A stretch of 64,000 nt of DNA from Eledone cirrhosa (GCA_964016885.1 OZ024741.1:148428001-148492000); one strand, 5' to 3'. Counted from the stretch's first letter, positions 8,360 through 64,000 are shown. The notes: generated from the sequence alone by a model not told the origin. Numbers and translations are program-made.

Positions 8360-8402
8360 TGCAGACACTAATATTTCTGGGTGATTACCCTTCATCAGTG
8401 CA
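8360..8402 (-). ncRNA. Minimal type I hammerhead ribozyme motif
   Basis: Minus strand: tgca-CTGATGA-a-gggt(aatc)accc-a-GAAA-tattagtg-TC-tgca. Stems I and II are intact; GUC site. Confidence 0.65.
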
Positions 8403-8565
8403 TTTTACTGTTCACCTGCCAGCTGTCAGAGCTAGTGAAAATATATGATTGTTAGTTATATATATATAAATATATATATATATATAAATATATATATATA
8501 TATATATATATATATATATATATATATATATATATATGTGTGTGTGTGTGTGTGTGTATGTATGT

Positions 8566-9195
8566 ATCATCATCATCACCATCATCGATTAATGTCTATC
8601 TTCCATGCTAGCATGGGTTAGACAGGAGATATATATATATATATGTATATATATATCTCCTGGGTACAAGCTGAAGCATATAGACAATATTCCCCCACAC
8701 CCCCACTGCAAGGTGGTCGTGGAGGTGCCACGGCAAAAAAGCACCCAGCCCACACTGTAAAGTGGACGTGTAGGCACCATGAAAAAGCACCCAGCACTCA
8801 CTGTAAATGAGGTTGGTGTTAGGAAGGGCATCCAGCTGTAGAAATCAAGCCAAATCAGTTCCTGTATGAGCAAGGCATGGTCAGCCGACCAGACACTGCC
8901 CACAACAGGACAACCCGTCTAACCCATGCTAGCGTGGAAGAACGATGATGATGATGATGATGATGATGATGATATATGTGTATCTATATATATATATATG
9001 TGTGTGTTTGTGTATGTGTCATCATCATCATTACTGTTTAATGTCCATTTTCCATGCTAGCATGGGTTAGATGAGTTGTCCTGTTGTTAGAAATACTAGG
9101 TCAGATGACCATGTCTTGCTCATACAGAACTGATTTTGGCTTGGTTTCTACAGCTGGATACCTTTCTTAATGCCAACCACATTTACAGTGAGTAC
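8566..9195. mobile_element. Cluster of RTE family A 3' UTR fragments (8566-8628 minus, 8660-8973 plus, 9019-9195 minus)
   Basis: Matches the 3' UTR of 18369-18670 / 21363-21680 (ggttggtgttaggaagggcatccagctgtagaa; cccatgctagcgtggaag-(gat)n). Confidence 0.85.
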
Positions 9196-9209
9196 TTGCA
9201 TGCAAATGT

Positions 9210-9690
9210 ATCAGGACTTCTCAAGCATCTTGAAATCAAACCGCAATGACGGTCTGATCTTATCGAGCCATAAAAGTGGTTACGACCTTGACTGACTTAA
9301 GGAAAACCTAATAGCCAGGTTCAATGTTTAGAACTAAAGATCACTGTAGCCACCAATTTGACTGGCAAAGGTTATTTAGGCATCAACCAAGAGCTTCGCA
9401 CACACACACATTCAGAGCTTGCCACCCCACCAGCTTAATGAAAAATTAACTTATATACACTAGGTCTCATATTATCCTCCGAAGGTCTTTAAAAACTTCA
9501 TTAGAAATACCAGTACTAGGATTTCTAAACTTTCTTCTAACAAGGCCATCTTTGACAGAGCAGTACTTTACTATAACACTGTGTTTGCCAACAGTGGTTT
9601 CTCCGATAAAATTTCTTACTCCCCTTCTAACCACACTACCAGTAAAAAGAAAAATAGAAAGAAAAATATAATTTGGTTCTGCCCCCAAAA
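9210..9690 (+). pseudogene. Penelope-like RT relic (YRDD-type)
   Basis: Plus-strand translation gives RNDGLIL and YPPKVFKNFIRNTSTRISKLSSNKAIFD...YYN...RKKNIIWFCP, homologous to ORF 33571-34737. Confidence 0.7.
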
Positions 9691-60064: not shown

Positions 60065-60585
60065 ATATATATATATATATATATATATATATATATATAT
60101 ATATATATATATCATATTGTATATTATATTAGATTGTATTTTTTATTTTATTTTACGCTAATTTACCCTTATTTTATGGTATATTGTTTTTTTTATTGCA
60201 TAATGTATTTTTAACTTTTAACTTACAGTTGTGTTTATATATGTATATGTGGAAGCACATGTGTGTGTAGGCAGATATGCATATGTGCAGGTGTATGCAT
60301 CTGGCAACACATATGCGTATGCATGTGTAGATCTATGTATATCGGCATATGCGTATGTATTTATGTGGATGTGCGTATGCATGTTAAGTTGTCTCTTTTC
60401 TTTTGTGTGTATATATATATATGTGTGTATCTACCTGTGTAGGTAATGTTTATGTACGTATGTGCATTTGTATGTATGTGTGGACATGTGTGAGTATAAT
60501 ATATATATGTGTGTGTATGTATGTATGTATGTATGTATGTATGTATGTATGTATGTATGTATGTATGTATGTATGTATGTATGTA

Positions 60586-62025
60586 TTGCATTTTCTGACG
60601 CTTGCACTGCCCTAGGTCTGACTGTCAGTCTCAAGAAAACCGTCGTCATGTACCAACCTGCTCCTGGTAAGCAGTACACTGAACCAAACATCTATGTGTA
60701 TGGCAAACGACTTGGAGTGGTTGATCAGTTTGTCTACCTGGGAAGCACTGTCAATCGATACAGCAACCTTGACAGTGAAATCTCACTTAGGATTAGGAAA
60801 GCAAGTGATGCTTTCGGAAAGCTAGAAAGGCGACTCTGGGGTCGGCGAGACATATGCAGGAGGACAAAGGTAAAGGTGTACAGGGCATGTGTGCTCTCTT
60901 GTCTTCTTTATGCCTGCGAGACCTGGGTCACATATCGACACTACCTTAAGCAATTGGAGCGTTTCCATCAGATGTGTCTCAGACGGATCCATGGCGTTCA
61001 CTGGAGGGACCACATCAGTGATGTCGAGATTTTGGAAAGCTCTATGTGTGACAGTATAGAAGCTCTTGTGCTTAAGCAACGACTCCGTTGGAGTGGTCAC
61101 CTTGCCAGGATGAAGGATTCTAGAATACCAAAACAACTCTTTTATGGAGAGATGGTTAAAGGAAAACGACCGCCACATAAACCAAAAAAGAGGTATAAGG
61201 ATTCCTTGAAAGCCTCTCTGAAAGACGCTAACATCTCTGCTGATACATGGGAAAATATTGCTGCTGATCGTAATAAATGGAGAAAGACTGTATATGAGGG
61301 AAAAGTTGCCTTTGAGGCATCTCGAATCGCATACGAGAAAGTAAAGCGGGATGTGAGGAAGGGCATTGCTGTTGCACTTCCAGACGGCGAGGGTCCTCTT
61401 ATGGTGCTGACATGCAGCGTCTGTGCGAGACTCTGCCTAAGCAAAGCTGGACTCGAAAGTCATCTTCGCAGTCATAAAGTAAGACCAGTGGTTGACTACC
61501 AGGCTGCTGTTGGAGATGCTACTCATCATGCTTGCCAAACATGTGGTAGAGAATGTAAATCAGCAGGAGGGCTCAAGGGACATGCAAAAGTACACGAACT
61601 CCAACCACAGCCGACTATTCCCAGTGAATGTTTTGGTTGCCGACTCTGTGCAAGACATTTTAGATCATTGGCTGGGCTAAAAAGCCACATTCGATCGCAG
61701 CGTTGTTAGTTGCTATCGTGTGTGTGTGTGTGTAGATATGCTTATGTGTGTGCGTGTGTGTATATATATATATGTATATGTATATTATTATTGTTGTTGT
61801 CGTTATTATTATTGTTGTTATTATTATTATTATTATTATTATTGTTATTAATGTATGTGTGTGTGTATATGTGTGTGTGGGTGGGTGGGTGTGTGTGGGT
61901 ATATGTGTATGTATATGTATATATATATTTCTTTTTTTTTTCTTTTTATTTATTTATTATTATTATTTATTTTTATTTTTTTCTCGTGCAATGGCCATAC
62001 TCGATAACGAGGGGGCAGCCATCAT
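60586..62025 (+). mobile_element. 5'-truncated RTE (BovB-like) LINE with three C-terminal C2H2-type zinc fingers
   Basis: ORF to 61709: GLTVSLKKT, FVYLGS, LLYACETW, RLRWSGHLARM, PKQLFYGE, then three CxxC-x12-H fingers. Probable tail ctcgataacgagggggcagcc near 62000. Confidence 0.88.
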
Positions 62026-62970
62026 ATGTGTGTGTATATATATATGTGTATGCACATGTGTGTATATATGTATGTGTGTGTATGCGTGTGTGTATATATA
62101 TATATACATATATATATAAATGTATAGAAGGTTGGCCGTATGTGTATGTGCGCTATATGTTTGAGTAGGATATGCTTATCCCAACTGATACAGGGCGCGA
62201 AGTAAGCAGCCGTCAGAAGGCTTGTGGCGATATGTATCAACAAGTGGGTGTGACTGGATCCGTGGAAGTGAGGGAGAGAGGGTGTGTGTATATATATATA
62301 TTAATGTAAGTATGTGGGTGTGTGTGTGTATGCGCATGTAGACGTATGTGTGTGTCTGCATAAGTAGGTATGTGTCTGCATGTGTGTGTGTTTATGTGTG
62401 TATTTTAGTATGTGTGGGTGCTTACTCTGAAGTGTGAGCAGACGTGTGAAGTACTGAACCCAGCATGACTCCATCGAAATGTGTCGGACGGAAAATGGTT
62501 GATGAACCGTGTGGCAGCAGATACTGACCAGAACTTGTGATGACGTGGAATAAAAACAGCCAATGGCATGACTAGAGTGGAAATAGTTTTTTTTTAGGAT
62601 GCTTTTTGATGATAACACCCCAGTGATAAAATTTGCTCCTGACATAACAACCGTGTCTGAAAGAACCCGCAGAAGTAGAATCAGCCAGATCCATACAAGG
62701 ACCATGTCTCGAGCTACATGCCGGCGAAACATTTGTAACACGAAATAAACTAAGTCCAGATGCATCACTGATTTTTCGTTTTCTTTATAATATCTACACT
62801 CTACTCTGATGAATATCGAGTGCTAATTTTGGCATACCGCCTATGGAAGCACCAAAGCTACCATTATACACAACTATATATATATATATATATATATATA
62901 TATATATATATATATATATATATATATATATATATATACATATACATATATATATATATACATATATATA

Positions 62971-64000
62971 TAAGATCAAAAGATGGTTAAAAGAGTTCCA
63001 AGTATTTTATTATGCGCATTTCAAAAACAAATATCATCATGGGATGATATCTGCGTTCTCATCAGATAAAATAGGGAGACATCATATGAAGCTTAAAAAA
63101 CACTTGTGAGCAGTGAAGTTTTAAATCAACATATGAAAAATAAATTAAGATGGATGTATGAGATTGGGAAAAAGTGCGGGAGTGGTGGAAAAGGTGAGGA
63201 AGAGGAAGAAATAAGAGTAAAGGATGGTGGGGGAGGAGTATAAGAAGGAAGGATGAGAGAGGAGGAGAAATGGGTGATAGAGAGAGATAGCCTTTATAAC
63301 TGAGAAAATATTGTCTCACAGAGAGAAATTAAAAAACCGTTGGAAGATAATAGATAATTTTGAAGTTAAAAGTTAATGAGGTTTATGCATGAAGAAAAAG
63401 GAATTAAGAATAGTATTAAATTAAGGTTTGTATATTGAAGGGTTTAATAATATGTGCGAAGAAAAGAATCTATTAATATGTATTATTAAGATAAAAATAT
63501 TAAGGATATTAAGGATATAATGTGAAAAGAAGGAGAAGAATAAATGAGTTATGAATTTAGAGGAATTAGTTAGGGTTTAAGTTTGTTTTTATGTATTGTA
63601 ATATGTATACGTAAATAGTATGTTTAAAATGAGCATGGGAGGAGAAAAGAAAAAAGAATGTTTAAGGAAGAAAATATCTAACGTCAAAAATATCTAACGT
63701 CGAAATATTTTCTAATGGTAATATTATAATATATTAAAAAGAAATTAGTTGGGGTTTAAGTTTGTTTTTATGTATTGTAATATGTAAAAGTAAAAGTTAG
63801 TAATGGGTTTAAAACGAGCAGGGAAGGAAAGAAGAGAGAAGAAAAATTTAAGGAAGAAAAAAATATCTAACGTCAAAAATGTTTATATGTTTACGGAAAT
63901 CTTCTAATGGTAATATTATAATGTATTAAAAAAATATAGTTTTAATGGCCAATAATATGAGGAAAGATGGAAGAATGGATAATGCTGTAGTGAGTAATAA
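62971..64000 (-). mobile_element. Probable PLE 3' region with hammerhead at 63003-63073
   Basis: Same HHR family as 27587-27657. Pyrimidine-rich on minus, like the other PLE 3' UTRs; ends at (TA)n. Confidence 0.6.

Follow-up and report, generated by a model that had tools for sequence, protein, structure and literature searches.

A 64-kb stretch of the 3.0-Gb Eledone cirrhosa genome (position 148,428,001-148,492,000, ~36% G+C; hereafter the window) raises the question of why sequences resembling the hammerhead ribozyme (HHR) recur along it beside (TA)n arrays, to which elements they belong and what they might do there. We propose, with a probability of roughly 0.85, that this (TA)n-rich stretch has been colonised by several families of Penelope-like elements (PLEs) and by units without an open reading frame (ORF), each with a minimal type-I HHR motif. 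This proposal builds on direct observations of an excess of motifs, of coding parts for a reverse transcriptase (RT) and a GIY-YIG endonuclease (EN), of the position of the HHR, of the structure of the copies and of the link to (TA)n, whereas RNA cleavage by the motifs of the window is a prediction from their sequence.

We asked first whether the motifs exceed what chance would give. The strict type-I descriptor demands a stem I of at least 4 bp, CUGANGA, GAAA, H17 and the 3' strand of stem I, together with a stem II of at least 3 bp, in which a 10.1/11.1 mismatch or one bulge is tolerated, and a stem III given by A15.1...U16.1 with at most 14 nt. It finds 11 sites from seven families in the window, compared with a mean of 0.195 (maximum 3, zero in 164) in 200 shuffles that kept dinucleotides within 2-kb blocks, and the motif density is therefore far above chance and not at the shuffled level. 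Motifs with a palindromic stem III number 5 in the window vs 0.005 per shuffle. C3 and G8 pair in the active hammerhead ribozyme; a separate descriptor for the U3-A8 form of the core returns one site in the window vs 0.185 per shuffle, or 0.015 if stem III must also be (quasi)palindromic.

The core CUGANGA...GAAA...H17, in the C-G-S order of type I, is intact at the 11 strict sites and at 32175, 35252, 37690 and 48462, takes the U3-A8 form at 28609, 29755 and 38254, and is broken at 17633. Failures of the strict descriptor are mutated copies (17633, 32175), U3-A8 cores (28609/29755, 38254) or forms with an extra base. Three helices surround the core at all strict-descriptor sites, and an unconstrained minimum-free-energy fold yields the three-way junction for 25392/27391, 27587/63003, 47933 and 58811/59732. 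Between the motifs of two of the PLEs listed below, PLE-A and PLE-B, the pairing of stem II survives two double changes. Scanning the window for the S-G-C, C-S-G and G-C-S orders gave nothing convincing, only one loose S-G-C parse that spans 245 bases with helices of 3-5 bp and coincides with no listed site. The window thus holds 11 HHR families plus one ambiguous case, in agreement with the roughly ten families of the first-pass annotation of this DNA; 16 of the 17 coordinates given there belong to a real HHR family, and the other, 38690, is ambiguous.

To which elements do these motifs belong? The PLE segments of the window, which comprise two Hydra-type PLEs and two with a CX4CxxC linker, are as follows.

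20694..21363, plus strand: PLE-B copy 1, C-terminal part of the ORF, with CX4CxxC linker and start of the GIY-YIG domain; a long interspersed element (LINE) is inserted at 21364-24307
24308..25006, plus strand: PLE-B copy 1, 3' region; HHR 24800-24844; ends at (TA)n
28556..29483, minus strand: Hydra-type PLE copy, 5'-truncated; ORF with CxCX5C linker and GIY-YIG; U3-A8 HHR 28609-28648
29484..30011, plus strand: inverted partial copy of this Hydra-type element, head-to-head; U3-A8 HHR 29755-29794
32321..32652, minus strand: PLE-C 3' region, inverted 5'-truncated copy; a ~117-bp segment is missing
32653..35042, plus strand: PLE-C (Hydra-type); RT, CxCX5C linker, GIY-YIG EN and first part of the 3' untranslated region (UTR)
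35043..35663, minus strand: PLE-A inverted copy, 5'-truncated, nested at (TA)n in the PLE-C 3' UTR; HHR 35252-35293
35664..37942, plus strand: PLE-A sense copy; RT, CX4CxxC linker, GIY-YIG motifs; HHR 37690-37731
37943..38538, plus strand: remainder of the PLE-C 3' region; U3-A8 HHR 38254-38355; ends at (TA)n
52205..53503, minus strand: PLE-B copy 2, 5'-truncated; HHR 52443-52485

The two PLE-B copies are joined by self-BLAST, which aligns 20845-21363 and 24308-25090 to 53493-52205. Evidence for the RT consists of YVDD/YRDD motifs plus a weak RVT_1 match. The PLE-C ORF (32653-34734, plus strand), with two in-frame stops, contains ADKTSN, YRDD, CNCHLPETC and LVYQCTV...YYIGAT as well as CRLC...E and N...CNH, and has homologues at 28-34% identity; a Pfam search of these homologues gave nothing. 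The PLE-A ORF (35594-37450, plus strand) has one in-frame stop and contains YVDD, the CX4CxxC linker and VVYSIRC...TYIGET. In the Hydra-type fragment true coding lies below ~29483 and ends with a stop at 28956 (minus strand), and CNCLDRGRC, CDLC, CTH and VIYRCTI...HYIGAT can be read. The marks of the Hydra clade are present, namely DKT instead of DKG, CxCX5C, CxxC and CxH around conserved E and N, and TA flanks, and by these marks we assign PLE-C and the 28956-29483 fragment to a putative Hydra type; the truncated PLE-C copy stops short of the N-terminal RWK.

A structure predicted for the EN (residues 282-396 of the 33484-34734 segment, with a predicted local distance difference test score of 72-91 there) matches the catalytic domain of I-TevI best (Z 8.8, root mean square deviation 2.4 Å, 88 residues aligned), followed by T4 EndoII (Z 7.2), the UvrC GIY-YIG domain (Z 5.7) and PD-T4-3 (Z 5.4). 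These top four are all GIY-YIG nucleases, and unrelated rows begin at Z 4.1. The modelled fold is consistent with a single ORF encoding an RT and then a C-terminal GIY-YIG endonuclease, as expected of a PLE.

Where a PLE ORF is attached, the HHR had been described as lying 3' of it on the sense strand, and this is so in five of five cases: PLE-A (37690, ~240 nt from the ORF), PLE-B copy 2 (52443, ~460 nt), PLE-B copy 1 (24800, beyond the LINE-split 3' region), the Hydra-type fragment (28609, ~306 nt) and PLE-C (38254, ~616 nt after removal of the nested PLE-A). Measured from the other side, motifs lie 24-290 nt from the 3' end of their unit. An ecosystem of autonomous PLEs and ribozyme-only passengers had been suggested for this locus. 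What stands of it is that the motifs belong to PLEs and to short ORF-less units and are tied to (TA)n; the autonomy of the PLEs is not supported, for none of their copies here is intact, all being truncated at the 5' end, interrupted or broken by in-frame stops.

The PLE motifs themselves depart from the standard core in two ways. Those at 24800 (plus) and 52443 (minus) have an extra G following A9, and the PLE-A motif (35252, minus; 37690, plus), with its core intact, has an extra U at this place and, in every copy inspected, only 2 contiguous stem I pairs. The Hydra-type motifs have the U3-A8 core. The one at 28609 (minus) and 29755 (plus) reads GCCC-UUGAGAA-GCCC-AACU-GGGC-GAAA-CGUACG-U-A-GGUGC, where the first core strand UUGAGAA corresponds to U3-U4-G5-A6-G7-A8-A9, stem II is GCCC/GGGC, the palindrome is ACGUACGU and stem I has only 2 contiguous pairs. 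In this family (at least 958 candidates) the U3-A8 core occurs in 38/38 alignments from 30 overlapping loci, the two copies of the window included, and CUGAUGA in none of them. The PLE-C motif at 38254 (plus) reads UAUU-UUGAAAA-U.UUGG...CCAA.U-GAAA-CGGUCG-U-A-AAUA, with the U3-A8 core UUGAAAA, a stem I of 4 bp, a long stem II and the quasi-palindrome ACGGUCGU.

The remaining motifs reside in the following units.

8231..8456, minus strand: ~226-bp solo unit, ORF-less, between two (TA)n arrays; HHR 8360-8402, by the strict descriptor
17540..17790, minus strand: old ~250-bp repeat unit, limits taken from coverage; degenerate HHR ~17633-17670
25291..25618, minus strand: left arm of an inverted pair, by strict descriptor and self-comparison; HHR 25392-25469
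27239..27491, plus strand: right arm of this pair; HHR 27391-27468, 24 nt to (TA)n
27557..27718, minus strand: ~160-bp solo unit with (TA)n on both sides; HHR 27587-27657
32110..32264, plus strand: 127-nt sense copy and 27-bp head-to-head junction (32110-32165); weakened HHR 32175-32213; ends at (TA)n
38676..38846, minus strand: 171-bp repeat unit between (TA)n arrays; 46-bp perfect hairpin; HHR-compatible parse 38680-38730
47742..48590, minus strand: ORF-less partial tandem of 529-bp period; HHRs 47933-48014 and 48462-48543; inverted ~50-nt piece at the 5' end
58592..59314, minus strand: 469-bp retrozyme-like repeat, ORF-less, 1.5 units; HHR 58811-58855
59315..60063, plus strand: 469-bp repeat, head-to-head, 1.6 units; HHR 59732-59776, with predicted cleavage between 59769 and 59770
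62973..63134, minus strand: second solo copy of the 27587 family; HHR 63003-63073

For several of these units copies elsewhere in the genome clarify the one in the window (candidate counts per family, 110 to 3759, are lower bounds). The 8360 family has at least 3168 candidate copies, 92-95% identical, and in most of the others stem I has 7 bp and stem III 3 bp, better than in the window copy. The copy at 17633, from a family of at least 3759 candidates, had been called degenerate, and rightly: it has C3>G and G12>A, while of the 19 other family copies fetched 16 keep CUGAUGA and 10 keep GAAA. At 32175 (plus) stem II is just 2 bp with a C.C mismatch; in its family (at least 110 candidates) UUGC-GAAA-GCAU, which forms three Watson-Crick pairs plus U.U under a GNRA loop, is found in 22/46 alignments (the loci overlap and some copies are counted twice).

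The inverted pair at 25392-25469 (minus) and 27391-27468 (plus), a family absent from the first-pass annotation, has 11 bp in stem I, 9 bp in stem II and 3 bp in stem III; stem III, with its 3 bp, is stable in this family and in that of 8360. The motifs at 27587 and 63003 (both minus) have the palindrome AUGCGCAU, and those at 47933 and 48462 (both minus) have ACUAAUUAGU, the 48462 copy keeping 3 stem I pairs only. The 469-bp unit carries a textbook minimal HHR with the palindrome ACUAGU (58811, minus; 59732, plus), the only sites detected by Rfam, and a 5'-truncated HHR at 59280-59314 (minus) that had also been overlooked. Its family (at least 938 candidates) forms tandem arrays of >10 units and inverted pairs elsewhere in the genome.

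The site at 38690 (minus) can be parsed as an HHR having 6 bp in stem I, 3 bp in stem II and 4 bp in stem III, but it must be left ambiguous because CUGAUGA sits in the loop of the 46-bp hairpin. Either an inverted duplication has masked a hammerhead in the 171-bp unit, or the unit is a hairpin element whose core is a chance match. We considered whether the hairpin might be a head-to-head junction specific to this locus, which is not the case, as the whole 171-bp unit recurs (at least 282 candidates). Diverged relatives of the unit in samples from across the genome (described below) still allow an HHR parse, in which stem I (CUUC/GAAG) and loop II differ.

Self-comparison of the window provides further insight into how these copies arrived. 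Head-to-head 5'-truncated pairs with their 3' ends outward are found at 35043-35663/37942-37312 (97.3% identical), 28556-28919/29847-29484 (97.5%), 25367-25618/27493-27239 and 32336-32624/38253-37965, and the 469-bp unit is mirrored at 59314/59315, where the junction falls within the hammerhead in one arm and 16 nt past the cleavage site in the other. There is one partial tandem (47767-48012/48296-48541, period 529). One arm often extends 75-140 nt beyond the other, and short inverted pieces stand ahead of sense copies at 48543-48590 and 32110-32165. Inverted or tandem architecture is seen at 7 loci of the window, and inverted pairs and 469-bp arrays recur elsewhere in the genome. PLE-A is nested at a TA tract within the PLE-C 3' UTR. 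These are the layouts by which PLEs are recognised, that is, pseudo-long-terminal-repeat (pseudo-LTR), partial tandem and inverted 5'-truncated copies with an HHR in the repeat, and the 469-bp and 529-bp units are, as retrozymes are, tandem ORF-less repeats each with a type-I HHR.

Two further copies may be described here. A solo PLE-A 3' terminus of ~250 bp (43847-44100), 93-94% identical to both arms (35 and 37.9 kb), has lost its 5' part up to a point just past the hammerhead and lies inside the most extensive (TA)n block here (42.4-44.3 kb). The left inverted PLE-C copy (32336) lacks the ~117-bp segment (38257-38378) that carries the hammerhead of the family and is bounded by 5-bp CTTAC. 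It is this copy that has a deletion, because the segment is a normal part of ~1000 family copies; the same finding, together with the lack of a GT-AG register, excludes an intron or a separate insertion. The loss has the appearance of a deletion by microhomology or of a template jump.

How close is the association with (TA)n, which makes up 6.9% of the window with nearby tracts merged and 6.3% unmerged? Distance statistics in the window, in fetched copies and across the genome bear out the link first proposed from the window. All 15 accepted sites lie within 300 nt of a (TA)n array, compared with 34% of random positions, and the per-locus median distance is 61 nt vs 530 nt for random positions (P about 1.5e-4). 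Among fetched copies of eight families, 170/188 have (TA)n within 300 nt, vs 208/376 control sites placed 1.1 kb off at the same loci (loci overlap and some copies are counted twice). As a genome baseline we took 40 grid-placed 10-kb samples, blind to content (400 kb), in which 22/24 strict sites lie within 300 nt of (TA)n vs 21% of random positions (binomial P 3e-13).

The same baseline bears on density. The 24 strict sites in 400 kb correspond to 3.84 per 64 kb, at a TA fraction of 3.9%, and the 11 sites of the window are only about 2.9 times this mean (Poisson P 0.002, which is optimistic since sites cluster). The exceptional density that the first-pass annotation implied, and with it the notion of a hotspot, is ruled out; the locus is ordinary for the Eledone cirrhosa genome, for which extrapolation gives about 1.8 x 10^5 strict-descriptor motifs. 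The grid samples also hold families absent from the window, such as one whose stem III is ACUAGU and whose stem II is AGCU/AGCU, and six occurrences of the PLE-B-type motif.

A plausible course of events, drawn from the published PLE model, is that the GIY-YIG nuclease would nick at (TA)n and the RT would copy the RNA by target-primed reverse transcription, which would account for the copies that are 5'-truncated, inverted or in tandem. Where a transcript is multimeric or reads through, a pair of hammerheads may join by the palindromic stem III and cut after H17, so that RNA of unit length is released. Mobilisation of the ORF-less units would take place in trans, as has been proposed for animal retrozymes.

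Several results weigh against this reading. At gathering thresholds Rfam reports only a tRNA-like gene in the whole window and no hammerhead. At E <= 10 it gives two reciprocal Hammerhead_HH9 matches of 31.8 bits (gathering 52) at 58796-58866 (minus) and 59721-59791 (plus), where the HH9 alignment has a 3-bp stem III that the 58811/59732 motifs lack; the remaining matches at this level, to miRNA models, are (TA)n or hairpin noise. With 19 excised sites, searched at E <= 10, the 58811/59732 family alone was matched, below threshold, and the other 17 gave none. On the protein side, the Pfam GIY-YIG model gives no match to the EN domains even when E <= 10 is allowed, solved structures searched by profile and by single sequence yielded no RT or EN relative beyond marginal DRT matches, and Foldseek vs PDB gave nothing at E <= 0.001, although GIY-YIG enzymes fill 7 of its top 10 rows. 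Helices are weak in several families that look active: in PLE-A and the 29755 family stem I has just 2 contiguous pairs. Cofolding of monomer pairs favours the dimer (ddG -3.4 to -12.1 kcal/mol), but chiefly by an exchange of stems I and II, so that pairing through stem III is not specifically supported. Copies within families are 88-100% identical, and conservation inside a family therefore says little on selection. In the 8360 family identity to the query is 95.3% for the HHR segment and 93.1% for the rest, a difference too small for selection on the HHR to be argued from it.

A published counterpart exists for every feature seen here. Passages of Cervera & de la Peña 2014 (PMC4209133) describe minimal type-I HHRs in PLE terminal repeats, with a short stem I, a long stem II, one base left unpaired between 9 and 10.1, a palindromic 15.2-16.2 and loop 3, and a stem III of 1 bp or none. 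They also describe U3-A8 as a covariation of C3-G8 (~1300 cases in Schistosoma, reported for Cercyon), dual opposite-strand motifs 100-700 bp apart and mostly solo, truncated copies; dimeric action is predicted there for minimal HHRs, with low in-vitro activity. The motifs of the window resemble these in the short stem I, long stem II, extra base, palindromic stem III, U3-A8 form, opposite-strand pairs and solo copies. They differ in host and families, in that U3-A8 is found here in Hydra-type elements and there in Cercyon, and in the stable 3-bp stem III of the 8360 and 25392 families.

The Hydra clade of C-terminal EN+ PLEs, as portrayed in parts of Craig et al. 2021 (PMC8557442), is marked by DKT, CxCX5C and CxxC/CxH around conserved E and N, and the layouts given there include pseudo-LTRs, partial tandems, an adjacent inverted 5'-truncated copy and a one-sided tail, with (TA)n as preferred target. 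Our Hydra-type elements agree in these marks, in their ~3 kb length, in (TA)n insertion, in an HHR near the 3' end and in the layout of copies. On the other hand, the relevant passage calls Hydra HHRs canonical, whereas both Hydra-type families here are U3-A8, and the one-sided extensions are 75-140 nt here vs 30-40 bp there.

Animal non-LTR retrozymes are ORF-less tandems derived from PLEs, according to passages of Cervera & de la Peña 2020 (PMC7229834) and of Li et al. 2026 (10.64898/2026.07.22.740005). The ORF-less repeats of the window share with them the type-I HHR, arrays of >10 units (the 469-bp family) and a proposed dependence on PLEs. Yet the 469- and 529-bp units exceed the 170-400 nt given for retrozymes in PMC7229834, the HHRs are of the minimal PLE kind, and many copies are solo or head-to-head. 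Compared with the type-SGC, non-circularly permuted hammerheads described in part of Eckert et al. 2023 (PMC10085705), the core blocks are alike and the order here is the classical C-G-S.

Published work, in the sources as cited, thus already covers HHRs in pseudo-LTRs, insertion at TA targets, copies in inverted and tandem arrangement, a palindromic stem III, dimeric action and passengers of the retrozyme type. No new question is opened here, this biology having been described in 2014-2021; only the family set of this host, plus the U3-A8 cores in both Hydra-type families, may be new.

Around these units the window is a mosaic of mobile elements, with LINEs (APE, RT and PHD domains), a Helitron and RT-like ORFs barely picked up by Pfam. 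LINE copies (APE, RT, PHD finger) lie at 18368-19628 and 21376-22637, at 48822-51992 (minus) and at 4435-6088 (plus); two are 98.3% identical, one of which interrupts PLE-B copy 1, and a 49-bp tandem repeat (18525-18632, 21533-21627) stands at the end of each of two copies. In a Helitron-like element (54123-58483, minus) the ORFs contain PIF1 helicase, Pif1 2B, Helitron_like_N and Rep domains; a further ORF upstream has STPR repeats and overlaps a tandem repeat of 69 bp (58221-58449). The element adjoins the (TA)42 array preceding the 469-bp hammerhead unit. A C2H2 zinc-finger ORF of 420 codons with several fingers (60447-61709, plus) lies between HHR-bearing units. The tRNA-like gene at 17399-17471 (plus) scores 49.7 bits with Rfam tRNA and is called tRNA-Ser GGA (73 nt) by ARAGORN; it lacks the long variable arm typical of serine tRNA and is possibly a pseudogene or the head of a short interspersed element (SINE). 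A SINE that starts with this head and ends in the 17633 motif was rejected, as the repeat unit covers only ~17540-17790 and the motif is on the opposite strand.

What, then, might the motifs do? A quite unlikely alternative is that the 3' HHR fold is kept mainly as a structural element in cis, such as a handle that the PLE RT recognises and through which passengers can be mobilised in trans, or as a hitch-hiker, while little or no catalysis is needed or achieved. The fold recurs 24-290 nt from the 3' end in about a dozen families that otherwise share no sequence, and young abundant families have the U3-A8 core with 2 contiguous stem I pairs. The low in-vitro activity reported for minimal PLE HHRs in the passages cited (PMC4209133) points the same way, as does a remark in PMC8557442, in the part we cite, that Naiads do well although they lack canonical HHRs, and that HHRs may 'simply parasitize PLEs'. 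Nevertheless, the catalytic positions, or a compensated U3-A8, are kept in every family, and a purely structural role needs neither. A related proposal, which we regard as speculative and unlikely, is that the HHR fold is a shared 3' handle by which unrelated ORF-less passengers make use of the PLE machinery, with U3-A8 minimal HHRs either fully competent in vivo or able to dispense with catalysis. The young thousand-copy Hydra-type families have U3-A8 core and 2-bp stem I forms only, and motifs number ~10^5 genome-wide by extrapolation.

That the motifs cut any host transcript crossing the locus, as the first-pass annotation had inferred they could, with a regulatory or toxic effect, seems to us very improbable. 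Motifs do occur on both strands over ~55 kb, and the zinc-finger ORF (60447-61709) stands between HHR-bearing units. Cutting, however, needs sense orientation, and the minimal stem III forms also need a second copy nearby; 47933/48462 is the only same-strand pair in the window, and one of the two has a truncated stem I. Retrozymes are, moreover, excluded from introns and exons according to the relevant part of Li et al. 2026 (10.64898/2026.07.22.740005). Finally, chance matches in AT-rich, repeat-rich DNA, a reading that the short cores and the empty Rfam result at gathering thresholds might suggest, are refuted to the point of negligible probability by the shuffle controls (11 vs 0.195, and 5 vs 0.005 for palindromic stem III), by density and (TA)n link in the grid samples, by the fixed placement relative to ORFs and 3' ends, and by the descent of mutated copies from canonical family members.

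In the reading that we prefer, of PLEs and ORF-less units with minimal type-I HHR motifs, the window provides a coordinate-level case of PLEs and non-coding derivatives piling up in (TA)n, including a PLE nested in the 3' UTR of another, within a genome extremely rich in minimal hammerheads. For annotation it means that Rfam thresholds miss almost all minimal HHRs, and that U3-A8 and extra-base variants must be admitted. Were the fold a shared handle and its catalysis dispensable, then the fold itself would be what the reverse transcriptase needs.

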